A DNA stretch of 64,000 bases from a virus. The notes under the pieces were generated by a model, which was not told where the DNA came from, made no database searches, and was given only the letters and a program-made list of their open reading frames with translations. A program made the position numbers and the translations under genes. The stretch spans positions 3,432 to 67,431 of IMG/VR virus record IMGVR_UViG_3300048029_000266. One strand, written 5' to 3'. This document shows, one piece after another, positions 1-48,047 of this stretch. The stretch's first letter is position 1, and each line of letters opens with the position of its first letter.

Positions 1-3000
1 TCATTTGCTACGTTGATTAACTTTTTTATAGACATTGACTCTAAATTTTTCATATTAGACTCAAGCTTTTCAACGTTAGACAAAGAGTTTAAATATCTTT
101 GATACCTATCCTCAAAGTATTGTTTTGTTTTTGCGTCTGATTTATTTACTGCGTCAGAACTATAACCTAAAAATGTAACATATTCATTAAATGTTAAAGT
201 TTTAGTTAGCTCTTGTAAATGATCTTGATAAAACTCTCTTTTATTTAGTTTTAAAGACGCTGTGTTTGTTGGCTCAAAAGATTGTTGTCCTTTCAACTTT
301 TTCTTTTCAGCGACAGTAGTCTGCATTTTTTCTTCATCTTGCTTAAAAAGCTGTGGATGAGCTAACATAAGTTCGTTAGCCTTATCAGCAACAGCAGGAT
401 CTTCTATTGATATATTGTTGTTTATTTCTTTTTGCAATAAATCATCTAATAAATCAAATTTATTTTTAATATAATTTTTTTCAAATAAAGGTGTAAGTGA
501 TTTACCTTTAAATCCTAAACCATTTTTTAAATAATCATACTGTAATAAAGCATCTTTAATTTCTGTAGGCAATAAAGTAAAGTCATTGCGTAAAGCCTGT
601 ATTGTTTCTTCTACAGAAAATTTATTTATTTGATTAGGATTTATTTGAATATTGTTTTCAAAGTAAGGACTACCTTCTATATTGCTAAACAATAGGCTCT
701 TTTTAACAAAGTTTTCTCCAGGCTGTTTGCTATAATCTTCTAATATTTTATATACCTCTGCTACAGTTCTATTATTATAATTAACAGTAGGTATAGCTTC
801 TGCTACTTTAATTAGATAATAATCTTGCATAAGTCTTCTATGCTCATATCTACTAAAGTCTAATTTTATTTTTCTTGTATCTTCTATATACTCAATTACT
901 TGTCTAGCTTCTGGCGTATACATAAACGATGTAGATTTCTGTCTATCTACTTGTTTTTGTAATAAATCTATAGAGTGCTTTACAAGAGGATCTGATCTAA
1001 AATTACCTAATGTGTTAGGATTTATAAAACTACCTTTTTGTTGCTCGTTAATTATATTAATTAATCTTTGAGCATCATGGCCGTGCTGTGGTATCGCTTT
1101 GTGTACAGATAAAGCTTTACCGATACTAAATATTTCATCAGTAAGCTTTTCTGTCTTGTATAACAAATCAAATAACGCAAGCTCACTTTGTTTGTTTTTG
1201 CCTTTTAGTTTTTCTATATTTAAGGTTATATCTCCTGATTTAGCAAAAGACTTAACTATGTTTGTTGCTTCTTTTTTACCAACACCTTTATAGTATTCTT
1301 TATATGCATTAACTACCGCTTGGTTGCTTATGCTTGTAGTCATAATAGACTGATCTCCTCTGTGCTTATCATACAACTTTACAATTGGATGATTCATTAT
1401 AATAGAAATATCTGACAAACTAATACCTAGCCTAGATAGTAATGTAAATTGATTTACTGTGTTTGGTGTAAGCCCTAGCTTATTAGCGTATTGATATTTA
1501 GCATTATCTAAAACAATATTAAGTAACTGCGCTACAGAAAAAGCAAAACCTTCAGGCTTATCTTCGTTATAGATGTCAACTAATGAAGAAACCTCATCAT
1601 ATCCTTTTATATTAATTCCAAATGTAAATCCTACCTTATGACCAGCCATTACATTTAATACTCTTTGCAATGAAGCTATAGTACCAATCATGTTTTGTGC
1701 AGGAACATTATCATTAAAATATTGAGCATCACCTGTTGGCAATAGTTGATTATCCATAACAAGTTTTTTGTTATAGAATGATTCTACTTTATTTATAGCT
1801 TCTTCAGCTATATCCTTAATGTCTATAGGTGTTGTTATTTCTTTATACCTACGACTATCTATTTCAATATCTCCAAGTAACTTTAAATTTAAATCTAATA
1901 ATTCATTAGCAGAAACTTGATAATCTTTCAATAAGTTTGTTTGCACTCTAGCTTCTGTTCCTAGTGGTGATATTTTTGTGCTGCCAGGCACATTGCCTAC
2001 ATGCGAATAATTTAAATATATAGCGTCACCATCTAAATCTGAACCCATAACATTAGATACTTTAGATGGTATTGCTATTGTACTTCTAGCTCCATCAATA
2101 CCTTCTGCTGCAAAACCTTTAACAACAAAAACAACAGACGACTGTTTACCGTGTGCAGGTATACGTGTTCCTAAAACTAAATCTCCAATCTTTACACCAT
2201 CTTTTTTAGCAGATGCTGGTATCATAGCTTCTGATACAACATAATCTTTACCCTGCTCTATTAAAGAATTTAAAGCAGACTTATAAGAATCGCCATCTAC
2301 CTTGTCTACTAAGTCTGATACTTTTATATATGATTGTAAGTTTCTACCTATTGGCGATGTTTGATAAGCTATAGTTCCTCCAAACATTGCTTTAGTTCCA
2401 AATTTAACTAATCTTGAAGCAGCTAATTGCTGTATCATATTATGCAACTGTGGATGTAATCCAGGTGCATACTGAGCCAATGAGGTATTAAGATTTCCAA
2501 AAAACTCTTCACCTATAAGTTTAGTTAAAAACTCTATATCTTTTTTTCTTTCTTCAGCTGTTGATTGATTTGAATAAATTACACCTTTGCCTTTAGAATC
2601 TTCAAACCCTACCATTGCTTTAGCTGCAAGCTCATGCATTCTATTTACCATGTCTTGCTCACCTTCTTCTAGGTTAGTATGATGATGTCCAAATAATTGT
2701 GAAGGCATATGAAAAGAATGTCTTTCCTTATCTAACTCTAATTGTAGTCCAAATCCTTCACCGCTTAATCCTTTCCAACTATCAAATAAACTAACTTCGG
2801 CTTCTCCTGAACTGTTATAAATTTCATCTTGTTTAGATACTACTTCTTCAACACTAAGTTGATCTAAATTATACATATAGTTTTCTCCAGGAGCATAAAC
2901 CTTTAAAGCTGATTTAAAAGTAGCTATTGGTGTAAAGTCATGTAGTTTTCCAGTTACTTCAGGGCCAGCAATAAGCTTTTGTTTTCCAATAGCTTCTTTT

Positions 3001-6000
3001 CTAGCTCTAAGAATGTCTGCTATCTTTTTTATTTCAGGACTAGACTTTTCCATTTCTGGTGTTATTTCGTCTATCTTAAATTTAGCAAACGTTCTTCTAC
3101 CAAATACCTTTTTATTTGGATTGCTTGTCTCAACATAATCATACACATGTTTAAATTGATTACCAACATTGCGCATAGATCCAAACTTCTTTCTAATTAT
3201 ATCGCCATCACCAGGCAACACATAAGCTTGTGCGTCTGTTCCAATAAAACCATCGTGATCAACTATATCTTCAAAAGCAACAAACTCTATAGGAGTGTTT
3301 CTGTCGTGCGGTGTGTGTCTTTTAATTGCACCATCTGCACGTTTTATATAATCTATTTCATTTTTGTGTTCATTGTGATTACCTATAAACATTTGTTGCG
3401 CCATGTATTTGTTTATAGAATAATTTAATATATAGTTTTTTAAATCTATATCTTTTAGTTTCTTGCCTTTCTCGCCTATTAAATCATTTAATTTAATTTG
3501 CTTAGAATCTTTAATTACTTCTGACTTAAACTTTTTAGAATATTGATTAAGTCCAGATAAAGCAAAACCATCTTTTGTTTTAATTATTTTAAATGGATTT
3601 ACTCTTGTACCATCAGCATATTTTGCCTCATTATACCCTCCATTATACGCCATTTCTAACAGCTCTTGTCTTTGTTCTGCTGTTTGAGCTACAGGCGTTT
3701 TAATGTAATATCTTCTTTTAGCTGCACCAAATACAGCAATAGCTTGATCATAATAAGCTAGCTCACCTCTTTTATATCTAGATACTGAATACAAAAATTC
3801 ATTAAAGTCTGTTAACATAAGCTCTAAGCTATCCATCTTAACATACTTTCTATTTCTTCTTGTGTCTTGCTGTGATGCTTGTGGTGTAGAAAACACACCA
3901 GACAACATGCTAATATTATGCTCTTTACCAGTACCATCTCCTAACATAGCAGCATATATATTAGTAAAACCTTTTTCATTAAAAAATCCTAGGTCTTCCA
4001 TAAGCTGATAGTATGCATTAATATCTTTTTCTGATAAATCTGCATAATTCTCATTTTTGTTATGTATAGAATTTTCTTTGTTTATTGTTAAGGTTGGATT
4101 CAAAGATACATCATTAACTTGTGTTATATAATTTTTAGCTCTTGACTGTACAATTAAATCAGCTAACAAATTATCAAAACCATTAGATATTTGTAAATAG
4201 TATCTGCCTTTATATTGTTTTACAAAATCTTCTCTATTGTTTTGTATTAACTGAGATATAGAGACATATCTTTTGTTTTTATAGTTATATACGTTACCTG
4301 TTTCAGACAGCTTTCTTTTATCTACAAACTGCCAATAAGATGAGTCTCCATATATAATAGATAATGTTTCTATAATATTTTCATTGTTACGTATATTGTC
4401 TATTAAAGACTTTAATTGCTCATTTGTAGTGCCTTTTCTTTTAAACCATCTTTCATTAGCTTCTCTTGTCATAGAGCTTTGCCATCTGGCCTCATCTGTG
4501 CTTAGTGAAACTCCAGGCACCCAGGTAGTAACGCCATTGTCTCCTCTCATAAAACCAACTTCTTTCATGGTTTCTATTTTTTTGTTAGCAAAGTCTATAG
4601 ACATCTCTAACAAAAGAGCATCAACTAAAGATTCTTTTTTTAGTTTATTATTTAAAAACTTAACAAATCTAACGACAGAAGGATTTTCGCTTTCAGTTAC
4701 ATTTGTAACGAAGGTAAAAGTATTGCCTTTTTTTGTTTTTTGTCCCAACGAGTGTAACTCTGATAATAGATCTTTTACATTTACAGGGTTTTTGTCGTTC
4801 TTTTTACTTTCTTCAAAAGAGTAAGCCTGTATTAGTTTTGATGTTGTTTCTCCAAACAACGTTTCTTCTTGATCGTAGATATTACCTTTGTCGTTTTCTT
4901 CAGCTACCTGCTCAGCTTCCCTATTAAAACTAAACTCTAAAGAGTCGTCAGATCTTTCTCCTTGATTAAGTCTCTTATCTACAGACTTTATTAAATCATC
5001 AACTATCTTTTGATACTCTTTGAAAGTAACTCTTTCTACCTGTGATCTAATCTTTCTCAGTAAAGTATCGTGCTCCATAGATGTTACTTCAAATGGAGGT
5101 GTTTGTTTTTGCGTATTATATGTTTTGTAATTTTGTTTATATATTTCTTGAGCAATTGACTGTACGGCTTCTTCACCTTTTTTACCTTTAGATAAAACTT
5201 GTTGTTGTATAATATTAAACAAACCCTTTGTAGATATTACGTCAAACTTAGCTTGCTTTAGCATAGCTTTTTTGCTATAGGAGTTTTGCTTAAATTGATT
5301 TTCTACATTTAAAGTATTAAAATTGTTTTGAATGTACGTCATCATTTGATCGTAATCCATTAGCCTTGTTTCAGGTATAACCTGCTCTACAGCAGATTTT
5401 GCTTCTTCACGGCTAGCTAGTCCAGCAACTCTTTTATATAGCCTTTTAAGTATACTTTCGTATTTCTGTGCGTCTGTTTTATTTTCAATAACATTTGTTA
5501 TTCCACCTTTTCTATTAAAGTCTTCATTAGAATATGCAAACGCCTCTTCAAGCAAACCAAACTGTGATTCATCATTCAATCTTTTTATAACACCTTCAGA
5601 AGAAAGTTGTGTAAACAAAGACTGTACAGCATTTTTATATTGCAATGTATTACCAGCTTCAGCTGCATTTACAATAGAGTCTAATAAAGAAGATAGAGGT
5701 GAGTCTACATCATTTCTTCTGTTTTCTAAAAAGTCAGAAAGTATATCTCCACCTGTTACAAAACTTTTACCCATTTTATATCTTGTCAATAATGGATAAT
5801 TATATTGTATGTTATCAATTAACTTAACTAAATTACCATTGGGTGTAAGTATTCTTCTTTTTATTAGTAATGTATTTAATCTTTTTTGTAAAGACGTTCC
5901 AGCTATAGACTGATAGTATGGGTGTGATAGCTCGTGTATTAAATCTGTTTGCATAGCAGATCTTGGATTTACCAATATAGTACTACTAAAAAACACAGCG

Positions 6001-8855
6001 GCAGCTGGTGCTCCAAACCCTTCTATAAGCTGTCTATTAGCAAATTCTATTCTTGTTCCTGGAAACTTTTCTTCTAGTGCAGCTCGGAGATAACCTCTTA
6101 TTAATGATCCTTTTTCATCAACCCTAGTAATATATTTTTGTACAGGTTTTCTTGCATCAGAATCTTTTCTGTTAGCAAACCTTTTTACATATTTATTAAT
6201 AAAATCAGTATACTTTTTTGGAGTGTCGGTGTCAGAGGTTTCTTTAGGCTTTACTTTGTCTGATTCTTGCTTTGCTGTTTTTTTACTTTTTTTTTTAGGT
6301 TTTTCTACAACCTCAGCCTCTTGAACCTCTTCTGTTGTTGCGGTTTGCGCATCTACTTTACGAGCTGTTTCAATATCTTCTTCAGATACTTTTTGTCTTC
6401 TAGCTTCTACTTTTTCTGTAAGCTCATCAACCTTTTTAGTTAATGAGTTGGCTATATCCACAAATTTTTCTGTTATTGTACCATTAAGTTTACCTTCTAC
6501 AAACTCAGTAATCTTATCCAAAACTTCACCGCTTGCTCCTTTAAGATCTGTTTTTTTAATCTTGTTAACTATCTCTTTTGCTTTTTTCTTAATCTGCTCT
6601 TTAGTCAAATTTCTGTTGCCCAATTCTTCTTTAGCAGCATTTATCTCTCTTTCTAAAGCTTGAGATGTTTTTGGGGCGTTTTGTGATAGATATTTTTTTA
6701 CATAATTTTTGCCTTGTGTAAATTGATCTTGTAAAAAGTTTTTAAGATTTAATGCTCCTTCAGATGTTACAATATCTTTTGCAGTCTGTTTAAAACCTTT
6801 TTCTTTAACAGTTTCTACAGCTTTGGTTACCCCTTCTTTAACAGCAGCAGCACCTTCTTTAACAGCTGTTGCAGCTCTAGATATTAATCCAGGCTTTTCT
6901 AATTCAGCTTTTACTCCTTCAGATGTAAACTCACTAAACTGATCTGGAGTTAATCCTTTAGATGATCTTTTAACTCTTGTCTTATCTTTTGTAAGTTTAC
7001 CCAACCTGACTGTAGCCAAGTTTTCAATAAGTTCTTCTTGTTGTTGAATTTCTTCGTTATATATTTGAACTTCATTATCAAAATTATTATTAATTTCTTC
7101 CTGGGCTTGTTTAAGCTTTACAGGATCTTTTATATTTTCACTAGCTAAATCTAGCTCTTGTTGTCTCTGCTCATTAGATCTTTCTATTGCAGCTTTTCTT
7201 TCAGCTATTTCTACTCTAGCTAAAAATATTTGTCTTTTACCAGCTTGACTTAAAGAATTACCTTTATGTGTAGACTCATATATATCTTCATATTGCTCAA
7301 TAGCTTCTGTAATTTGCTGACCTACTTCTTCTCTCATTTGTCCTTCAGCAACCATTCTTTCGACTCTAGATTTAGCTAATTGAGCATTACCATTTTCATC
7401 AATAACAGTATATGCTATAATATCTTTACGCATAGCTTGAGCTTGTTCAAACTCATTTAAATCCATTAGATCACCAAGTCTTCTTCTTTGCTCTTGTAAT
7501 TGATAATCTCTTTCGGCAATAGCATCAACATAACCCCCTCTAGAACCCATAGCACTACCTAAAGCAAATGCACTAACTCTTGTTTGTAGCATTTCAGGAC
7601 TTTTAAAAAAGTCTGTATAAGACATGTAATCTAATCCTTTCTTTTCAGCAATAGCTCTATTTTTTATCCACTCTTGATATACCTCTTGATATTGCTCTGC
7701 CGTACCTTCAATTGCACCTGTAGCACCAGCCTGTATAAAAGGAGCTATTTTTTGTCCAAAAGGGATTGGTTTTGGTAAATTTCTAAAACCCCTAGCCAAT
7801 CTACCTAATCCTCCAAATACTAAACCAAACTGTGCTATATCTGCTAAAACCCAATTAGTATTATCTCTCCATACCTGTGATGCTGCCGCTTGTGCTTCTT
7901 GTGGAGTAAGTCCATCTGCTAATGCTTGTTGCATAGTTTCTCCTGCAACAAAAGCACCTTCAGCAAAGTTACCACCAATACCACCACCTATACTTGTTGT
8001 TACTATATCGATGCCTTTACGCATTTCCATTTTTGCAAACTCTTCACCTTTTTGCAAACCTCTTCTTTTAGCTTGTCGTTTTGTAGCTTTAGATATTACA
8101 GGTTTATATAATTTTTCACCTACACCCAAGGTTCTTGCCCCCTTGTAAACTTTATTTGAATTTAACAATAGTCTTGTTCCTCTAGCAGCTACACCAGCAG
8201 GTAAAAAGAAAGACATTGAATATGGTAATAATTTTGCTACATCTGTTGCCCAAAATCTTGGACTAGCTAATTGTCCCCAACCAACACCCTTTAATTCGTC
8301 TGCAACAAATATTTGGTTTTTATTTGATATTTCTGATCCTTTTCTTTGCAGATAGTCACCAATTGTAGTGTTTTGGTCTACATCTGGATCCCATGGAGTT
8401 ACAACAGCTTTCAAGAACTCAAATGTATCTCCAGTTCCTTTTATTAAATCCCCTGTACCTGCTTCAAGGCTTTGTTGTAACATAGAGTCAGATCCTAAAA
8501 ATCCAGAAATAGCAGATCCTATACCCATACCTACAGCTCCGCCCGCTGTGCCTCCTAATGCAGTACCTAAAACTGTACCTCCTAAAGTAGCTAAATCTTG
8601 TGGAGCTACTACAGGGCCAGCACCTGCTGTAGGGCTTACACCTACCCCTGTAGGTCTCATGCCTAATTGCTCTTGCTGTAATCTATTTGCTTCTTGTGAT
8701 TGTTGTTGTCCAGCATATAAAGATAATGCTTTATCATATTCTGTTCCCTGCTGTGATAATAATGATAAAAACGCATCAGTTTCATTTGCGCTAGTCATTC
8801 CAGACTCGTATTCATTTATGCCTTCTGAAGGTGTTTGCTCGTTTATATCTGCCAT
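1..8855 (-). CDS. Giant virion-packaged two-barrel DNA-dependent RNA polymerase polyprotein (crAss/phi14:2 gp66-like), >2950 aa, 3' end beyond the window; includes a zincin-like HExxH domain
   Basis: Absent from the ORF track, consistent with no stop inside the window. ATG at 8855 overlaps the upstream stop; the frame was spot-checked open at several points down to base 3. Hand-translated motifs: TDAQAY (~3225-3240), FKSALKV (~2900-2920), GTRIPAHGKQS (~2140-2172), catalytic GSDLDGD (DLDGD 2025-2039), VLDNAK (~1497-1514), HELSH (5922-5936) with EEAFA (~5535-5550). It follows the cargo genes as in crAss-like phages. Confidence 0.9.
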   Translation of the reverse strand, partial: MADINEQTPSEGINEYESGMTSANETDAFLSLLSQQGTEYDKALSLYAGQQQSQEANRLQQEQLGMRPTGVGVSPTAGAGPVVAPQDLATLGGTVLGTALGGTAGGAVGMGIGSAISGFLGSDSMLQQSLEAGTGDLIKGTGDTFEFLKAVVTPWDPDVDQNTTIGDYLQRKGSEISNKNQIFVADELKGVGWGQLASPRFWATDVAKLLPYSMSFFLPAGVAARGTRLLLNSNKVYKGARTLGVGEKLYKPVISKATKRQAKRRGLQKGEEFAKMEMRKGIDIVTTSIGGGIGGNFAEGAFVAGETMQQALADGLTPQEAQAAASQVWRDNTNWVLADIAQFGLVFGGLGRLARGFRNLPKPIPFGQKIAPFIQAGATGAIEGTAEQYQEVYQEWIKNRAIAEKKGLDYMSYTDFFKSPEMLQTRVSAFALGSAMGSRGGYVDAIAERDYQLQEQRRRLGDLMDLNEFEQAQAMRKDIIAYTVIDENGNAQLAKSRVERMVAEGQMREEVGQQITEAIEQYEDIYESTHKGNSLSQAGKRQIFLARVEIAERKAAIERSNEQRQQELDLASENIKDPVKLKQAQEEINNNFDNEVQIYNEEIQQQEELIENLATVRLGKLTKDKTRVKRSSKGLTPDQFSEFTSEGVKAELEKPGLISRAATAVKEGAAAVKEGVTKAVETVKEKGFKQTAKDIVTSEGALNLKNFLQDQFTQGKNYVKKYLSQNAPKTSQALEREINAAKEELGNRNLTKEQIKKKAKEIVNKIKKTDLKGASGEVLDKITEFVEGKLNGTITEKFVDIANSLTKKVDELTEKVEARRQKVSEEDIETARKVDAQTATTEEVQEAEVVEKPKKKSKKTAKQESDKVKPKETSDTDTPKKYTDFINKYVKRFANRKDSDARKPVQKYITRVDEKGSLIRGYLRAALEEKFPGTRIEFANRQLIEGFGAPAAAVFFSSTILVNPRSAMQTDLIHELSHPYYQSIAGTSLQKRLNTLLIKRRILTPNGNLVKLIDNIQYNYPLLTRYKMGKSFVTGGDILSDFLENRRNDVDSPLSSLLDSIVNAAEAGNTLQYKNAVQSLFTQLSSEGVIKRLNDESQFGLLEEAFAYSNEDFNRKGGITNVIENKTDAQKYESILKRLYKRVAGLASREEAKSAVEQVIPETRLMDYDQMMTYIQNNFNTLNVENQFKQNSYSKKAMLKQAKFDVISTKGLFNIIQQQVLSKGKKGEEAVQSIAQEIYKQNYKTYNTQKQTPPFEVTSMEHDTLLRKIRSQVERVTFKEYQKIVDDLIKSVDKRLNQGERSDDSLEFSFNREAEQVAEENDKGNIYDQEETLFGETTSKLIQAYSFEESKKNDKNPVNVKDLLSELHSLGQKTKKGNTFTFVTNVTESENPSVVRFVKFLNNKLKKESLVDALLLEMSIDFANKKIETMKEVGFMRGDNGVTTWVPGVSLSTDEARWQSSMTREANERWFKRKGTTNEQLKSLIDNIRNNENIIETLSIIYGDSSYWQFVDKRKLSETGNVYNYKNKRYVSISQLIQNNREDFVKQYKGRYYLQISNGFDNLLADLIVQSRAKNYITQVNDVSLNPTLTINKENSIHNKNENYADLSEKDINAYYQLMEDLGFFNEKGFTNIYAAMLGDGTGKEHNISMLSGVFSTPQASQQDTRRNRKYVKMDSLELMLTDFNEFLYSVSRYKRGELAYYDQAIAVFGAAKRRYYIKTPVAQTAEQRQELLEMAYNGGYNEAKYADGTRVNPFKIIKTKDGFALSGLNQYSKKFKSEVIKDSKQIKLNDLIGEKGKKLKDIDLKNYILNYSINKYMAQQMFIGNHNEHKNEIDYIKRADGAIKRHTPHDRNTPIEFVAFEDIVDHDGFIGTDAQAYVLPGDGDIIRKKFGSMRNVGNQFKHVYDYVETSNPNKKVFGRRTFAKFKIDEITPEMEKSSPEIKKIADILRARKEAIGKQKLIAGPEVTGKLHDFTPIATFKSALKVYAPGENYMYNLDQLSVEEVVSKQDEIYNSSGEAEVSLFDSWKGLSGEGFGLQLELDKERHSFHMPSQLFGHHHTNLEEGEQDMVNRMHELAAKAMVGFEDSKGKGVIYSNQSTAEERKKDIEFLTKLIGEEFFGNLNTSLAQYAPGLHPQLHNMIQQLAASRLVKFGTKAMFGGTIAYQTSPIGRNLQSYIKVSDLVDKVDGDSYKSALNSLIEQGKDYVVSEAMIPASAKKDGVKIGDLVLGTRIPAHGKQSSVVFVVKGFAAEGIDGARSTIAIPSKVSNVMGSDLDGDAIYLNYSHVGNVPGSTKISPLGTEARVQTNLLKDYQVSANELLDLNLKLLGDIEIDSRRYKEITTPIDIKDIAEEAINKVESFYNKKLVMDNQLLPTGDAQYFNDNVPAQNMIGTIASLQRVLNVMAGHKVGFTFGINIKGYDEVSSLVDIYNEDKPEGFAFSVAQLLNIVLDNAKYQYANKLGLTPNTVNQFTLLSRLGISLSDISIIMNHPIVKLYDKHRGDQSIMTTSISNQAVVNAYKEYYKGVGKKEATNIVKSFAKSGDITLNIEKLKGKNKQSELALFDLLYKTEKLTDEIFSIGKALSVHKAIPQHGHDAQRLINIINEQQKGSFINPNTLGNFRSDPLVKHSIDLLQKQVDRQKSTSFMYTPEARQVIEYIEDTRKIKLDFSRYEHRRLMQDYYLIKVAEAIPTVNYNNRTVAEVYKILEDYSKQPGENFVKKSLLFSNIEGSPYFENNIQINPNQINKFSVEETIQALRNDFTLLPTEIKDALLQYDYLKNGLGFKGKSLTPLFEKNYIKNKFDLLDDLLQKEINNNISIEDPAVADKANELMLAHPQLFKQDEEKMQTTVAEKKKLKGQQSFEPTNTASLKLNKREFYQDHLQELTKTLTFNEYVTFLGYSSDAVNKSDAKTKQYFEDRYQRYLNSLSNVEKLESNMKNLESMSIKKLINVAN

Positions 8856-38970: not shown

Positions 38971-39378
38971 TTAATATTTAGGACCTATGTTTGAATAATT
39001 GTAAGGCACATTAGGAATATCAAAATTAATATCTTCAACAGCACCTGACAAAGGATTTTTTCCTTGCTTATGTAATTTATATAGTATTTTAGGTATTTGT
39101 TTTAATTGTTGATTAATCTTTGAATCATAAACTTTCCTTAAAAATCGCCTTTTTATAGATCTAGATGTTTGCGGATGCAAATTTTTGTAAGTCATAAATC
39201 TTTTAGCGTTGAATAACAAAGGAGTACCTATATATTCTAAAGATCCAGAACCACCAATAACCATATTATCTAACTCTTGTTGACTCATTGCTCTAGTTGT
39301 GTAATCATGTATTGATGCCTCTGGTAAAGTATATGGACCATAGGTTTTATCATCATCTGTATAAAGAGCTTTGTTCAT
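38971..39378 (-). CDS. Hypothetical protein, first gene of the leftward unit
   Basis: ORF preceded by a TACATTTG box at 39383-39390. Confidence 0.6.
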   Translation of the reverse strand: MNKALYTDDDKTYGPYTLPEASIHDYTTRAMSQQELDNMVIGGSGSLEYIGTPLLFNAKRFMTYKNLHPQTSRSIKRRFLRKVYDSKINQQLKQIPKILYKLHKQGKNPLSGAVEDINFDIPNVPYNYSNIGPKY

Positions 39379-39564
39379 AATGCAAATGTACTAAAAATTA
39401 TGTGTATTTGTAGAGAAGGGATGCTTTATGCTAAATACCCCCTCCCCTGTCCTATATTTTTTTACACCCCGTGTAACATATATTGGATTATGTCAGTATT
39501 TTGCGTAATACCTGCACGCATTCTACTGTTCTCTTAATTATAGCAGGTTAATACTTATATTACA
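39379..39564. promoter_or_regulatory. Divergent strand-switch region (late leftward / early rightward)
   Basis: Non-coding; leftward -7 box at 39383-39390, C-tract ACCCCCTCCCC, hairpin TTACAC-CCC-GTGTAA at 39462-39476. Confidence 0.55.
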
Positions 39565-39858
39565 ATGGGATTATTTAAATCACTAACAAATTTAGCTGTG
39601 TCAACAGTACAATTAGCTAAAGAAGACAAACAGTTTCGTAAAGATGTACTGTTAAGTCCTGTGCACATACCAATTGCTGCACATAAAATCTTCTTTGACA
39701 AGCTAGATGAAGCTACTGGCTCTAAAAGAGCTTGTAAAAATGTAGCTTACAAAGTAGTTGATGTCATTACTCAGCATGAGTTAAGACAACAGGCAGAGAC
39801 TCTATACCCAGACATTAAGTTCGATAAAGACATTAAATTCCATAGTGTAGAACTTTAA
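39565..39858 (+). CDS. Early hypothetical protein
   Basis: First rightward ORF. Confidence 0.65.
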   Translation: MGLFKSLTNLAVSTVQLAKEDKQFRKDVLLSPVHIPIAAHKIFFDKLDEATGSKRACKNVAYKVVDVITQHELRQQAETLYPDIKFDKDIKFHSVEL

Positions 39859-40008
39859 CAGTCTGATTATCAATTAGTTAAGCGGTAACACCTTGAAATT
39901 GTGCGCTATAGTGTTAAACTAATTTATTTAAGTAATCAAGATGGTTAGCTTTGTTACTGTATTAGTTTGTTATTCTATTATTTAATAAGTAACATTCCAA
40001 TATGGCCT

Positions 40009-40040
40009 CAAAGTTAGCCGTTTTTTTTTACAAAGTCAAG
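40009..40040 (-). promoter_or_regulatory. Bacteroidota sigma70-type promoter firing antisense to the early region
   Basis: Minus strand TTG-N20-TAACTTTG (-33/-7 consensus TTTG...TAnnTTTG). Confidence 0.6.
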
Positions 40041-40043
40041 TCC

Positions 40044-40098
40044 TTTCTGTCCACAAATGAGTATTTGTGCTGATGAGTTCAAAAGAACGAAACAGAAA
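40044..40098 (+). ncRNA. Type III hammerhead ribozyme
   Basis: TTTCTGT-C^-CACAAAT[GAGT]ATTTGTG-CTGATGA-GTTC[AAAA]GAAC-GAA-ACAGAAA: complete core (CUGAUGA, GAAA, GUC cleavage triplet) with perfect stems I (7 bp), II (4 bp) and III (7 bp); intergenic. Confidence 0.93.
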
Positions 40099-40150
40099 TA
40101 AGCCCAAACACGGTTCGGCCATCGACAATAGATGTTAGCGTGTAATAACT

Positions 40151-40417
40151 ATGAGACCAAGAGTTTCAAAATCTAAATTAATTACTAAAGCTTTCCCAAG
40201 TATACATAAGTATGCGAAAGCGCACACAAAAACTGCTGAAGAGATAATGCAGGATTGTATGGATAGAGTCAAGCACTTGAATCCAGACGAGACATTGCGT
40301 GCAAGGTACATTACCAAGTTTATTACAAAGAACTTTGGTAACAATATTAAAGTATGCAATGCTCTGAAGCAAAAGTATGTTCCTAAAAGAAAGTTTAACC
40401 CAATAACTGTATTATAA
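40151..40417 (+). CDS. Early hypothetical protein (basic)
   Basis: ORF with AACTATG start context. Confidence 0.65.
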   Translation: MRPRVSKSKLITKAFPSIHKYAKAHTKTAEEIMQDCMDRVKHLNPDETLRARYITKFITKNFGNNIKVCNALKQKYVPKRKFNPITVL

Positions 40418-40419
40418 TT

Positions 40420-40701
40420 ATGAAACAGAATCAGTTCACAGCAAAGTATATCAAGGCATATACTAAGCCAAACGGTAAGAATATAATTCGATTCTCTGAC
40501 GAGAATGGTAATCAACGAATTATTATACTTAATAAAACAGAAAAGGCAGAGCTGCCTAAGTTACACCATTGGTATAACTGGAGCAACATCTGCAAAATGA
40601 AGAACGTTACGGATAATTTCCGTGCGTTCCTCAGTAATAACTGTAGCTTCAAAAAGATTGATGGCTATACTAATGTAACATATATTATGAGTTTAAAATA
40701 A
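40420..40701 (+). CDS. Early hypothetical protein
   Basis: Tightly packed ORF. Confidence 0.65.
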   Translation: MKQNQFTAKYIKAYTKPNGKNIIRFSDENGNQRIIILNKTEKAELPKLHHWYNWSNICKMKNVTDNFRAFLSNNCSFKKIDGYTNVTYIMSLK

Positions 40702-40758
40702 TTAACCAACACTCTAAAAACAAGGAACCCTTGAGTGTTTTTAATAGGGAATATAATT

Positions 40759-41208
40759 ATGAATACCAATCAAGTTAGAAACTATCTATTGTATGATAGA
40801 ACTGCAATGGATGTAACAGGTTTGAAACTAGAATATTTCAAGGCTGCAATGAAAGATGAGAACTGGCATCAGTTCTTATTGTCAGACGAGTACGATAATC
40901 TACTCGAAACGTTGAAGGTTAATCCATACGAAAGAGCACATCAAGCATTTCGTAGGGAAGAATCACACGACATTATTAAGTCTGTTGATAAAAAGAATAT
41001 GATTGTTACAATGCTAGATGGCTCAACTAGAAGACCTATCTTCTTTGAGAACAGCTTTCTTAAAATGCAACAATGGATTCAAAACAAGAACTCTACATAT
41101 AACTATCGTAAACGTATGTTTATTAAAGAGTATCTTGGTAAATTCAAGAAGAAAAAAATGTCTAACTATGAACTAGCTACTAACAAGCTAGGAGACTTTT
41201 TAAAGTAA
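40759..41208 (+). CDS. Early hypothetical protein (start revised to MNTNQ)
   Basis: AATTATG start context. Confidence 0.65.
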   Translation: MNTNQVRNYLLYDRTAMDVTGLKLEYFKAAMKDENWHQFLLSDEYDNLLETLKVNPYERAHQAFRREESHDIIKSVDKKNMIVTMLDGSTRRPIFFENSFLKMQQWIQNKNSTYNYRKRMFIKEYLGKFKKKKMSNYELATNKLGDFLK

Positions 41209-41294
41209 TGTGGTTGTACATTTGGTTGAGCGTAGTGGCATTATACTGCTACGCTCTTTATGATTATAATAAAGGTAAATTTAAAAATAATTAG
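41208..41294 (+). CDS. 28-aa membrane micropeptide MWLYIWLSVVALYCYALYDYNKGKFKNN
   Basis: Hand-translated; TAATG coupling to the upstream stop; fills the gap exactly. Confidence 0.5.
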   Translation: MWLYIWLSVVALYCYALYDYNKGKFKNN

Positions 41295-41296
41295 TT

Positions 41297-41557
41297 ATGA
41301 TAAATGATAAGTCGGTAGACAGCTACCACAAATTATTAGAGTCTGGTGTGTTAAGCAAAAGACAAGCGCAAGTGTATCACGCTATAATGACGCTTGGTCA
41401 ATGTACCAACAGACATATAGCTCGAGCTTTAAGCTGGGATATAAATAGAGTAACAGGACGTGTTACAGAACTGCGTAATAAAAACGTAGTAGAATATGCA
41501 GGAGATTACAAAGATCCTGAAACAGATAGAACAGTTAATTTATGGAAAGTAAAATGA
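41297..41557 (+). CDS. Winged-helix DNA-binding protein
   Basis: LSKRQAQVY...TNRHIARALSWDINRVTGRVTEL. Confidence 0.75.
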   Translation: MINDKSVDSYHKLLESGVLSKRQAQVYHAIMTLGQCTNRHIARALSWDINRVTGRVTELRNKNVVEYAGDYKDPETDRTVNLWKVK

Positions 41558-44276: not shown

Positions 44277-44548
44277 TGAAAGTTAAATTATTGCAACGAC
44301 AGGTTTTTTACAAAGTAGGTGTTATCGAAATAGATATACCTAATTTAGAAGAATCTGATTTTACTGGTGTACATCAATACCTTAGTGATCATCAAGATTT
44401 ATGGGCTGATAAGCTAGCAGAAAATATGGACAAATGTCCATTAAATCACGGTTTTGGATTATGTGATCTTACTAATAGATGGTCAGACACAACAGAAGAA
44501 ACTGAATACTTATACGAACTGCCTAACGGAAATGGAGGGCACATTTAA
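44276..44548 (+). CDS. Early hypothetical protein
   Basis: Coupled ORF ending NGGHI. Confidence 0.6.
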   Translation: MKVKLLQRQVFYKVGVIEIDIPNLEESDFTGVHQYLSDHQDLWADKLAENMDKCPLNHGFGLCDLTNRWSDTTEETEYLYELPNGNGGHI

Positions 44549-44555
44549 TAATATT

Positions 44556-45428
44556 ATGGACAACAATCAAAAGATTTTCGAAACATTGTACAACACTAAC
44601 ACAGCTTGGTCTGTACAAAAAGAACCGTTATTTACACAAGACGGAAAACAAACGCAGAGCTATGGTTTATTTAGATCTGATAATAACGCCTGGTTAAGTA
44701 CTGTAGGTGAAAGATACGTTCCTATGCAGAACGCAGAACTAGCTGAAATTATGGTTAGAATACAACAGAGATTTGGTGGTGACATCAAAGGTAATGCTAT
44801 GGGTAGAATTGCAGGTCAAAAAGTGTACTACCAACTATCATTAGAAGATTATAACATTAATGGCGACACGTTAAAACGTCATATTACTTGTTTAAACTCG
44901 CATGATGGCTCACACTCTATAGGTTTTGGTTCTACCAACACGGTTATATCGTGTTCTAACACCTTTCACATGGCTATGAAAGACCTATCTAAGTTTAGGC
45001 ATACTATGAGTGCATCGCAAAGATTACAGTTTGCTGTAGACGAGTTTGAAAAAGCCTTAATACTTGATGATAATCTTATGCTTACATACAAAGCGATGAA
45101 TAGAGTTTCTGTAGATCAAACTATCATTGAAAGTGTTATGCAAAAGATATTTAAAGTTGATATGAATAGTAAGGTTAGTGATAACTCTACACGTAAGAAA
45201 AACCAAATTGAAAACTTTGGTAAAGCTATGTCGCATGAGCTTGCAGCAAAAGGCAATACCCTGTGGGGATTATTTAATGCTGTAACCTATTATACCAATC
45301 ACATTGATAATAAAGGCGAAGAAAATCTTATGACAGGCTCTGGATACAAAAAGAACTTGATAGCTTTTAAAACCATTGAGAATCAGTTAATGGAAAAAGG
45401 AATGTTAATTAATTTACAAGAAGTATAA
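44556..45428 (+). CDS. DUF932/DUF945-family protein (start revised to MDNNQ)
   Basis: VGERYVPMQN...LNSHDGS...VISCSNT...RHT...GNTLWGLFNAVTYY. Confidence 0.85.
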   Translation: MDNNQKIFETLYNTNTAWSVQKEPLFTQDGKQTQSYGLFRSDNNAWLSTVGERYVPMQNAELAEIMVRIQQRFGGDIKGNAMGRIAGQKVYYQLSLEDYNINGDTLKRHITCLNSHDGSHSIGFGSTNTVISCSNTFHMAMKDLSKFRHTMSASQRLQFAVDEFEKALILDDNLMLTYKAMNRVSVDQTIIESVMQKIFKVDMNSKVSDNSTRKKNQIENFGKAMSHELAAKGNTLWGLFNAVTYYTNHIDNKGEENLMTGSGYKKNLIAFKTIENQLMEKGMLINLQEV

Positions 45429-46736: not shown

Positions 46737-48047
46737 ATGCACGATGAATTAATAACATATGAGCTAGAAACAGCTTTATTGTCTAAGCTTCTGATGTATC
46801 CTGAATTATATTATGAGAATGCACAGATGTTAAATGTGGGTATGTTTACAAACTTATTCCACAAAAAAGTTTATGATCAGTTTTTGGTGATGCAATCAGA
46901 GCAAAAAGATGTAGATTTAGTATCTATGTCTTCTGCTTTGAATTGCAATAGAGAGGAGAGAATAAGATTGTCTGCTATTTATACTCACGAAAATACTTTT
47001 TATAATGTAAAATCCTGTATTGCAGAGCTTAATGCTTGCACACAGAAAAGAAACTTACAGCTTTTAATTACAGAAGCACACAATAAGTTTCAAAATCAAG
47101 AACCAATTGAAGACATTATAGCCTACATTAATAAGATGAATGCTAAAATAATGGTAGTTGAAGATACTGATGTTGCTAATATATCATCACAAATCAAAGA
47201 CTTTTTAATTGACATTGATAAAAGAATATCATCAGAAGGTATTATTGGTGTAACTACTGGCTTTTCATCGTTGGATGATTTTACAGGCGGTTGGCAAGAA
47301 ACAGATTTAGTTATAATAGGTGCAGCGTCATCTATGGGTAAAACTAGTCTTGCATTAAATCTTGCTTATAACGCTGTAAAAATAGCTAAACAGCCTGCAC
47401 TAATATTTTCATACGAGATGTCTGTAAATCAACTTATAATGCGTCTAGTGGCGTTAGAATCAGAGATTCCTATAAGATGGATACAAAATGGACAGCTTAA
47501 CGATGAAGACTTACGCAGAGTTCAACAAACTGCTAGCGAAATTATGGATAAATCCATATACATTGACGAGTGTAAACAAACGTCATTGAAATATTTATTA
47601 TCTAAAACTAGACAGTATGTACATAGCTGCGGTGTTAAGCTTGTGTTTGTTGACTACTTACAACTTGTCACAGCGAGTGTCGGATCAAAAGGAACCAGAG
47701 AGCAAGAGGTCTCAAAAGTTGCTAGGGCACTCAAAAACCTTGCCAAAGAACTAAATATTACGATTATTGCATTGTCGCAATTAAATCGTGGTGTAGGTTA
47801 TAGAGCTGAAAGCAAACCAACATTGTCAGACCTTAGAGAATCAGGTGAAATCGAGCAAGCCGCAGATATTGTAGCTTTAGTTTATAGGCCTGAATACTAT
47901 GGTATAAACCAAGATGAAAATGGTGAATCTACACAAGGCAAAGCGCAAATAATATTTGCTAAAGGCCGTAACATAGGTGTGGGTACAGTTACACTAAATT
48001 TTATTAGTGAATTGACTAAATTTCAAGAGAAATCTTTAGATTTTTAG
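46737..48047 (+). CDS. dnaB: Replicative DNA helicase, DnaB family
   Basis: GAASSMGKTS Walker A, FSYEMS, VFVDYLQL, ALSQLNR, DLRESGEIEQAAD, AKGRN. Confidence 0.95.
   Translation: MHDELITYELETALLSKLLMYPELYYENAQMLNVGMFTNLFHKKVYDQFLVMQSEQKDVDLVSMSSALNCNREERIRLSAIYTHENTFYNVKSCIAELNACTQKRNLQLLITEAHNKFQNQEPIEDIIAYINKMNAKIMVVEDTDVANISSQIKDFLIDIDKRISSEGIIGVTTGFSSLDDFTGGWQETDLVIIGAASSMGKTSLALNLAYNAVKIAKQPALIFSYEMSVNQLIMRLVALESEIPIRWIQNGQLNDEDLRRVQQTASEIMDKSIYIDECKQTSLKYLLSKTRQYVHSCGVKLVFVDYLQLVTASVGSKGTREQEVSKVARALKNLAKELNITIIALSQLNRGVGYRAESKPTLSDLRESGEIEQAADIVALVYRPEYYGINQDENGESTQGKAQIIFAKGRNIGVGTVTLNFISELTKFQEKSLDF

Follow-up and report, generated by a model that had tools for sequence, protein, structure and literature searches.

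Hammerhead ribozymes cleave their own RNA strand, leaving a 2',3'-cyclic phosphate on one side of the cut and a 5'-OH on the other. In insulators of the RiboJ type, a hammerhead and a hairpin placed in the 5' UTR remove promoter-derived sequence, resulting in context-independent expression. Among the natural hammerheads described by Perreault et al. 2011 (PMC3088659), three flank ardA and a neighboring gene in a prophage region and are reported to cleave in vivo, and another lies 13 nt before a start codon in the haloviruses HF1/HF2. Hammerheads in the UTRs of RNA mycoviruses are reported to enable translation (PMC13725137). For the thousands of hammerheads found in bacteria and phages, a 2019 review (PMC6765202) presents function as a question that is still open.

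Here we analyze a hammerhead found in a 64,000-nt stretch of virus DNA (positions 3,432 to 67,431 of IMG/VR record IMGVR_UViG_3300048029_000266; hereafter, the window) and the corresponding position in related phages. This locus is a natural experiment: at one orthologous position, different genomes carry the ribozyme, a tRNA-like minihelix (TLS), both of them around a small gene, or, rarely, neither. The idea that hammerheads serve as mRNA punctuation thus becomes directly testable at this slot.

A type III hammerhead ahead of the plus-strand operon of a crAss-like phage

The window belongs to the genome of a marine crAss-like phage; this genome, of 67.4 kb, is complete and bears direct terminal repeats. 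Among its products is a Crassvirus muzzle protein (PF25731; E 2.4e-122). PHROG families were assigned to the terminase, the portal, and the major head protein; the terminase shares ~30% identity with its counterparts in gut crAss-like phages, with Flavobacterium and Cellulophaga phages matched too. The structural genes, on the minus strand, end at 38971-39378. A plus-strand run starts with small ORFs from 40151, continues with replication genes, including a DnaB-like helicase at 46737-48047 (PHROG matches), and extends to about 52705. Since this run begins at 40151, the ribozyme lies on its sense strand and ahead of it. The first conserved gene of the run (40151-40417, plus strand) encodes an 88-aa protein of no family, for which searches in Pfam and PHROG gave no match above cut-off. 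At the DNA level, the region 39300-41300 had no match among 50,697 phage records. Four public runs were compared with the window, all in the form of contigs. Those of the RNA library X1 cover 39404-39906 and 40105-40305, and not the ribozyme; such contigs show neither ends nor strand, and DNA may be present in the library, so that this gap speaks neither for nor against transcription or cleavage.

The whole motif occupies 40044-40098 on the plus strand and reads UUUCUGUC up to the predicted cut, followed by CACAAAU-GAGU-AUUUGUG-CUGAUGA-GUUC-AAAA-GAAC-GAAA-CAGAAA. Direct reading gives stems of 7, 4, and 6(+1) bp, a complete core, and a GUC cleavage triplet. The 5' strand of stem III (40044-40050, UUUCUG plus U16.1) pairs with ACAGAAA at 40092-40098, the A15.1-U16.1 pair (A40092 with U40050) included. 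The N-U-H triplet is G40049, U40050, and C40051, with C17 at 40051, which places the predicted scissile bond at 40051-40052. Stem-loop I (40052-40069) consists of 7 bp, 40052-40058 with 40063-40069, closed by a GAGU loop. It is followed by the core segment CUGAUGA (C3-A9, 40070-40076) and by stem-loop II (40077-40088, GUUC AAAA GAAC), whose 4 bp join 40077-40080 to 40085-40088, with G40077 and C40088 forming the G10.1-C11.1 pair. The remaining stretch, 40089-40098, holds the core GAA (G12-A14, 40089-40091), A15.1, and the 3' strand of stem III, as placed by direct reading and by Infernal. All core nucleotides are therefore present (C3 U4 G5 A6 N7 G8 A9 and G12 A13 A14), in a three-helix junction in which loops cap stems I and II and stem III is open.

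Infernal aligned the motif end to end with Rfam Hammerhead_3 (RF00008; model positions 1-54 of 54) at 45.2 bits. Over a searched stretch of 351 bases, E is 6.4e-9; over the genome of 67,431 bases, in which the motif is the sole RF00008 match, E is 3.0e-10. These E values exclude a chance match. The score is 3.3 bits under the Rfam gathering score of 48.5 bits, and for this reason a scan of the whole window in gathering mode gave no match. Stem I exceeds the model consensus in length and loop 2 falls short of it, which accounts for the missing bits; the core is not at fault. In its minimum free energy fold, the 55-mer forms the three-way junction expected of a hammerhead, with an ordinary folding energy (z -1.79; 14 of 200 shuffles fold equally well); in a 146-nt context, the centroid structure keeps stems I and II and loses the A/U-rich stem III. 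A reading made from the sequence only had proposed a complete type III hammerhead at these positions, cut after GUC at 40051, about 100 nt upstream of the early genes. The direct reading and the full-length RF00008 alignment, even with its sub-gathering score, bear out the motif, and direct reading puts the predicted cut at the same bond. The distance holds for the cleavage site, which is 100 nt from the first ATG of the run (40151), and not for the 3' end of the ribozyme, which is 52 nt from it. Judged by these features and by 10 distinct orthologous versions at the slot, described below, the element is a genuine, active-looking type III hammerhead.

The hammerhead alternates with a tRNA-like minihelix in related phages

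A search with the terminase retrieved 249 related stretches, of which we kept and examined 80. The ribozyme was found in just one of these 80 loci because both flanks of the slot are conserved while the piece between them varies (BLAST). Many relatives have a TLS exactly where the window phage has its hammerhead. We therefore collected the slot itself by its upstream flank motif, obtaining 15 stretches from viral contigs and 41 from metagenome contigs, a sample that is limited to contigs retaining this motif and that comprises 44 distinct leaders. Ten of the 44 have the hammerhead alone (the window's leader is the same as L109 over the 300 nt compared), 10 the TLS alone, 12 a small ORF and then a TLS, and five the hammerhead, a small ORF, and a TLS in that order; one, L113, has neither element. 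Contig ends cut the other six (three uninformative, two with a TLS, one with a hammerhead). The hammerhead is thus present in 15 of the 38 resolvable leaders. Where present, it always lies directly 3' of the conserved ACAAARTCAAGTM, and the TLS, where present, always lies directly 5' of a conserved CCC..ACACGG leader. Synteny in relatives is confirmed in the sense that the hammerhead recurs at the orthologous slot, but there it alternates or pairs with the TLS. The existence of L113 means that neither element is indispensable.

The same order of hammerhead, ORF, and TLS is repeated in a distant contig, L168. Its hammerhead (4679-4735) is followed 21 nt downstream by a 304-aa ORF (4756-5670, phrog_1221); a TLS match at 5667-5717 begins at the stop of this ORF, and the next ORF runs from 5715. 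Altogether, we saw six such triplets, five at the crAss-like slot and the one in L168.

The minihelix has a minimal acceptor/T-arm shape

The TLS is a minihelix of 41 nt in which a linker of 10-11 nt (AUUGGAUGUA) joins an acceptor-like stem of 6 bp to a T stem, likewise of 6 bp, that is capped by the loop UUCGAUU; the GG of the linker may mimic a D loop. We aligned sequences that had been picked by their loop motifs only, five of them from unrelated contigs. In this alignment, 92.9% of cells are paired, nine of the 12 pairs show double changes, and the covariation score is 0.632 versus 0.195, with none of 500 shuffles as high. The TLS has no D or anticodon arm and hence no cloverleaf, and it is not a true tRNA: ARAGORN called no tRNA in the window nor in 11 loci with hammerhead/TLS slots, nine of which have a TLS. 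A tRNA fragment of the attP type was also considered and rejected, since the element has a 5' acceptor strand, which shows covariation with its 3' counterpart. What the element does have is a coaxial acceptor/T helix of 12 bp (6+6) with a GTTCGAWTCC T loop. A 12-bp acceptor/T helix is the minimal substrate shape of RNase P and RNase Z, and one or both of these host enzymes presumably cut the TLS.

The TLS matches no Rfam family, the best hit being a weak one to mascRNA-menRNA (18.1 bits, E 0.71), and no copy of its exact pattern occurs in 185,579 prokaryote species, each represented by one genome. A covariance model of the TLS (R1) found none in the genome of the window phage, where its top score was 12.7 bits (E 2.3). 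When applied to 46 loci (42 new ones from the hammerhead pattern search described below, plus L094 and L096-L098), R1 matched only L168 and the last four, which had helped to build it.

Covariation and genomic placement of the hammerhead family

Neither stem I nor its loop varies among the 15 leaders with a hammerhead, and the core segment CUGAUGA is invariant except for position 7, which is U or A at the slot and U, A, or C in the wider family; hammerheads tolerate any base at this core position. Stem II has two forms, GUUC/GAAC and, in L021, L087, and L117, GUUU/AAAC, in which a U-A pair replaces C-G by compensatory change. Stem III varies between 4 and 6 bp and never falls below 4; one C-to-U substitution keeps a G-U pair, and one U-to-A substitution restores a pair. 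The leader between ribozyme and start codon (40102-40146, plus strand) is also structured, as predicted by RNAalifold from 23 sequences: a helix P1 (40108-40112 with 40139-40143) encloses a hairpin P2 (40120-40123 with 40131-40134), and four of the nine pairs show double changes (ACACG/CGUGU to GUAAG/CUUAC; CAUC/GAUG to CACC/GGUG).

A looser hammerhead pattern matched 47 stretches in viral contigs, 26 of which hold, according to our finder, a type III hammerhead with all its parts. Among the other 21 stretches, none of which is a hammerhead, several have in common an unrelated conserved sequence. With the slot orthologs added, the pattern-search finds make up a family of 30 distinct hammerheads, with a stem I of 6-7 bp and a GAGU-like loop, and a stem II of 3-5 bp (mostly 4) and an AAAA-like loop; there are at most three copies per contig. 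In the alignment of the 30, 90.9% of cells are paired, compared to 29-53% in slid registers, a percentage that is inflated because the finder required paired stems, which leaves the variety of pair types unaffected. Double changes are seen in 14 of the 18 pairs, versus 7.7 +/- 1.6 in shuffles (0 of 500 as high), and in all five pairs of the lower helix of stem I. The loop nucleotides are nearly invariant (G17, T20, A40, A42), as would fit a tertiary contact between loops 1 and 2, on which fast hammerhead cleavage at cellular Mg2+ depends.

We determined the placement of the 21 family hammerheads located in other viral contigs, considering ATG-started ORFs of at least 50 aa. Nineteen lie outside such ORFs. 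For 16 of the 21, a same-strand ORF ends 21-49 nt upstream, and for 13, a same-strand start codon follows 21-30 nt downstream; four of the other eight are without a same-strand downstream ORF in the fetched locus, three of these being ~150 nt or less from the locus end. Most family hammerheads have a GC-rich hairpin a few bases to their 5' side. From their positions, the family hammerheads are intercistronic elements of polycistronic units, in agreement with the examples given by Perreault et al. (PMC3088659).

A probable punctuation slot in the operon mRNA

Which function would explain this distribution? We think it probable that the ribozyme is a cis-acting mRNA-processing site in the leader of the rightward operon, which is of replication/early type, and that it occupies a "punctuation" slot where hammerhead and TLS are exchangeable. 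This is the best reading because relatives place a second kind of processing signal in the same slot. Specifically, a role in making mRNA ends is supported by the fact that a cutting signal that acts differently shares the slot, and that the two bracket a gene when they occur together. The RNA-processing role put forward by the sequence-only reading is in part upheld by this comparison, with a coding-strand leader and a second candidate processing signal in the same slot of relatives. A part that found no support is the separation of the first gene from the early polycistron: the ORFs upstream of the conserved block that precedes the slot differ between relatives.

In such a scheme, nascent plus-strand RNA would fold behind the RNA polymerase and cut itself after C40051. 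The upstream RNA, with the conserved 180-nt block, would be released with a 2',3'-cyclic phosphate end, and the operon mRNA would begin at C40052 with a 5'-OH, followed by stem-loops I and II, the two-helix leader, and the AUG at 40151. The effect would be one of punctuation, with the downstream message uncoupled from upstream sequence and given a defined, structured 5' end devoid of triphosphate. To go by RiboJ and the mycovirus hammerheads, such an end would probably alter stability and translation of the message. The two alternative modules would differ in their needs, in that the ribozyme would work without a host enzyme and the TLS would presumably be cut by RNase P/Z. When present together, they would bracket a small, exchangeable accessory ORF. 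Features that count against this scheme are the score under the gathering cut-off, the loss of stem III in the 146-nt centroid, and a stability not above that of shuffles.

Gain and loss at the slot

We built quick maximum-likelihood trees for the upstream flank (35 rows, 15 with hammerhead) and the downstream flank (33 rows, 13 with hammerhead). On either tree, hammerhead presence needs at least six changes, and the well-supported branches alone force at least three changes per labelled group. The window's leader groups with L088 and L090, both carrying hammerhead, ORF, and TLS, with SH-aLRT values of 97 (upstream) and 93 (downstream). Since the window genome has neither the TLS nor a cassette ORF, and these nearest relatives have both, the ribozyme may have come in as part of a mobile hammerhead-ORF-TLS cassette and been left behind when ORF and TLS were later deleted. 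It might then still cut, with no selected role. The repeated changes on both flank trees and the grouping with cassette-bearing leaders agree with this origin, as do three further observations. Leader L101 has a hammerhead and then only the last bases of a TLS, a deletion scar. One small protein family (IVPVRNFG...) is encoded by four of the five hammerhead cassettes, and the protein of the fifth has the same C-terminus. The hammerhead is 89-100% identical across leaders, and the flanks differ much more, their identities being ungapped and hence underestimated.

A decaying leftover is nonetheless a rather unlikely explanation, given what the hammerhead-only leaders look like. They occur in at least four flank lineages, always with the core intact. 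Five of their seven distinct versions have a stem III of 5-6 bp, versus 4 bp in two of the three cassette versions (L088, L090); the exceptions are L100, with 4 bp, and L101, which has the 5-bp cassette version of the L089 type. Longer stems in most hammerhead-only versions are not the pattern expected of decay. Moreover, one hammerhead-only clade (L021, L087, L104, L117, L129) has diverged and undergone the compensatory stem II change with its fold kept.

Leaders with a TLS and no hammerhead carry other small ORFs, including one for a basic peptide of 29-34 residues. The cassette ORFs, like the first genes of the operon, gave no PHROG matches, and their Pfam matches were all below cut-off. 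Given the repeated gain and loss and the differing small ORFs, the slot has the character of a recombination hot spot where small accessory genes are exchanged. The hammerhead and the TLS would form its boundaries, and on the trees the hammerhead appears to have been gained or lost repeatedly.

Conserved sequence upstream of the slot

The punctuation reading concerns the RNA downstream of the cut. It could instead be that the ribozyme serves the RNA upstream of it, by forming the 3' end of a short noncoding RNA or leader, with any effect on the mRNA being incidental. That RNA would derive from a noncoding block of 180 nt (39862-40042) which ends at the ribozyme slot and is conserved, in comparisons with 14 and 32 relatives, far better than the ORFs upstream of it or any other nearby ORF. 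Within the block, the consensus scan found a sigma-70-like match (GTAACA-16-TATAGT, with -35 and -10 at 39885-39912), and a weak hairpin followed by U9 lies at 40005-40029, which the ribozyme would back up as an end-former. The upstream motif, sought elsewhere in the window as a repeated promoter, is present in a single copy. Candidate identities of the block are a promoter region, a DNA site, and the gene of a small RNA. The idea of an upstream product draws further support from the hammerhead being always joined to the end of the block and not to the downstream leader, and from the GC-rich hairpin 5' of most family hammerheads, placed as if guarding a new 3' end. A precedent may exist in phi14:2, for which two early intergenic regions are reported to be transcribed more strongly than most genes, with function given as unknown (bioRxiv 10.1101/2020.03.07.982082). 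What makes this explanation unlikely in our view is, first, that the block has almost no conserved RNA structure; as a structured RNA, it was rejected (RNAalifold -7.07 kcal/mol, double changes in two of 17 pairs). Second, the 12 leaders with an ORF between block and TLS do without a hammerhead, which shows that the block need not be followed immediately by a 3'-end maker. Third, family hammerheads tend to lie 21-30 nt ahead of start codons, which favors a role on the downstream side.

The sequence-only reading had gone further and joined the ribozyme, an antisense promoter 4 nt away, and an origin-like block into one control unit for transcripts of a virion RNA polymerase (vRNAP). The close spacing of the conserved block, direct repeats (39950-39981), and ribozyme, as well as a conserved TTGACT hexamer on the minus strand at 40034-40039, would fit such a hub. 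The hexamer is what remains of the divergent promoter, as the consensus scan found no promoter there: its nearest minus-strand match is at 40000-39972, and sigma-70 matches in this AT-rich region number only 11 versus 5.6 +/- 2.1 expected. Nothing that we found marks the 180-nt block as an origin or as an antisense promoter. The vRNAP fared no better. The 3668-aa giant protein, the candidate tried, gave no Pfam, PHROG, or PDB sequence match and has no DFDxD motif in its 2951+717 residues, and no vRNAP was identified. For phi14:2, the early promoters are reported to have no motif in common (bioRxiv 10.1101/2020.03.07.982082). Finally, the hammerhead comes and goes among close relatives while the block stays, and we regard a single control hub as very improbable. 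Weaker still is a chance, inactive match to the hammerhead consensus, which the sub-gathering score and unremarkable folding energy would allow but which the genome-wide E value, the conservation at the slot with its compensatory changes, and the strongly covarying family refute for practical purposes.

Discussion

The punctuation reading can be extended into a more specific scenario, which we offer tentatively, as a possibility that is harder to credit in all its parts. Hammerhead and phage-specific TLS would be interchangeable RNA-cutting modules at the head of the rightward operon, jointly releasing the mRNA of a small accessory gene, its 5' end folded as a ribozyme and its 3' end shaped like a tRNA. 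The conserved sequences would act as recombination handles for cassette swaps, and the hammerhead-only state, that of the window phage, would be a host-independent replacement of the TLS. If this scenario is true, then the locus would show, by a natural example, that making mRNA ends is what hammerheads of bacteria and phages do biologically.

The ribozyme itself belongs to a well-known class in a well-known setting, the intergenic regions of phages, and is an ordinary, if clean, example of it. What looks new is its alternation and pairing with a TLS at one orthologous crAss-like slot, and the tRNA-like minihelix itself. In the literature, we found no paper on hammerheads of crAss-like phages or on alternation between hammerheads and tRNA-like elements; the lists of earlier surveys may hold this sequence family.

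Among the closest described systems are the phage and metagenome hammerheads of Perreault et al. 2011 (PMC3088659). As characterized there, they have the same core, the GUC site, and loops on stems I and II, and they share with the window's hammerhead an intergenic position in a phage, the sense strand, and, in HF1/HF2, the proximity to a start codon. In the relatives of the window phage, hammerheads flank accessory genes, as do the three described around ardA. Unlike the RF00008 set and the examples in that report, the hammerhead studied here scores 3.3 bits under the cut-off, belongs to a crAss-like phage, and alternates or pairs with a TLS at a single slot.

The TLS of the relatives, an acceptor/T-arm mimic located between coding regions at a point where RNase P and RNase Z would form mRNA ends, resembles two tRNA-like processing signals, the t-elements of plant mitochondria (PMC1920247) and mascRNA/MALAT1 (RF01684), its weak best Rfam match. 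It differs from both in that it is a minihelix of 41 nt lacking D and anticodon arms, in residing in a phage, and in that its cutting is a prediction. The combination of the two elements has a parallel in the theta (HDV-like) ribozymes located by phage tRNAs (PMC10879173), where a small self-cleaving ribozyme of a tailed phage has a tRNA-shaped partner and a proposed part in RNA maturation. As presented in that work, the ribozyme is of another class and its partner is a real tRNA with its trailer removed, whereas the crAss-like slot has a tRNA mimic as partner and would yield mRNAs.

In its proposed mode of action, the window's hammerhead is similar to RiboJ, which is engineered, originates from a plant satellite RNA, and is not a natural family. 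It is also comparable to the mycovirus hammerheads, for which self-cleavage just upstream of a viral ORF is reported to be tied to expression of that ORF (PMC13725137). As reported, those are type I hammerheads of eukaryotic RNA viruses and function in cap-independent translation, whereas the present one would act in a DNA phage, whose messages have no cap.

Conserved elements around the slot

Shortly before the start codon at 40151, the 5' UTR of the rightward gene run folds into a conserved two-helix structure (window 40102-40146), with compensatory changes in both helices (ACACG/CGUGU to GUAAG/CUUAC and CAUC/GAUG to CACC/GGUG). This leader is kept regardless of whether the hammerhead or the tRNA-like minihelix (TLS) stands upstream in the variable slot. 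One relative has a slot with neither element (L113:11620-12000, plus strand); its sole content is a plain hairpin, GUAUUC...GAAUAC, and the two-helix leader is missing as well.

On its other side, the slot is bounded by a non-coding block roughly 180 nt long (window 39862-40042). Across relatives this block is better conserved than the ORFs that precede it, and it contains scant conserved RNA structure. Within it we observed a sigma-70-like -35/-10 pair (39885-39912), TTTGTTAYT repeats in tandem (39950-39981) and, at 40005-40029, a weak hairpin followed by U9. Candidate roles for the block are a promoter/operator, a small RNA gene or a DNA site.

The TLS and the genes beside it

The TLS spans 41 nt, with an acceptor-like stem of 6 bp, the linker AUUGGAUGUA, a T stem of 6 bp and the loop UUCGAUU, and it shows strong covariation. 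We located it on the minus strand at L012:448-498, L032:1380-1430, L017:6319-6369, L096:4139-4189, L098:372-422 and, in two copies, L094:2012-2062 and 36-85, and on the plus strand at L097:4275-4325 and L168:5667-5717. It has no Rfam family, ARAGORN called no tRNA for it, and a search of 185,579 prokaryote genomes returned no match to its exact pattern. Several unrelated viral contigs carry it intergenically, flanked by genes on the same strand. The TLS may represent a phage RNA motif that has yet to be described.

The interval between hammerhead and TLS holds small, variable accessory ORFs (L088:1010-1372 and L089:3972-4223 on the plus strand with L135:290-547, L138:596-829 and L090:7735-7944 on the minus strand; L017:6377-6466, minus strand; L032:1433-1600, minus strand). 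They comprise a 77-120-aa family with the motifs IVPVRNFG...CSE.DW, highly basic peptides of 29-34 aa and an acidic protein of 55 aa; none of the three searched against PHROGs (L088, L089, L032) gave a match. Their position and turnover suggest that they are early accessory genes. In L168:4679-5717 (plus strand), a phrog_1221 gene (304 aa) is precisely flanked by a hammerhead on one side and a TLS on the other; the homologue in the window (44454-45428, plus strand; 324 aa) adjoins neither.

Hammerhead arrays and the giant protein

Other viral contigs carry multiple hammerheads of the same build, spaced within 1-2 kb: three in L156 (390-446, 1201-1258 and 1536-1592, minus strand) and two each in L150, L167, L174 and L177. 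Each lies between short ORFs of the same strand, most with a GC-rich hairpin (e.g., GTGTCTTCAAAGACAC) on the 5' side.

A minus-strand ORF that covers window 3-8855 and extends beyond the window as far as genome base 1283 (locus L184) encodes a giant protein of 3668 aa. The protein had no match among Pfam, PHROG or PDB sequences, and the DFDxD motif was not found in it; its C-terminal part contains hydrophobic stretches. The virion RNA polymerase of this crAss-like phage is a candidate identity for the protein.
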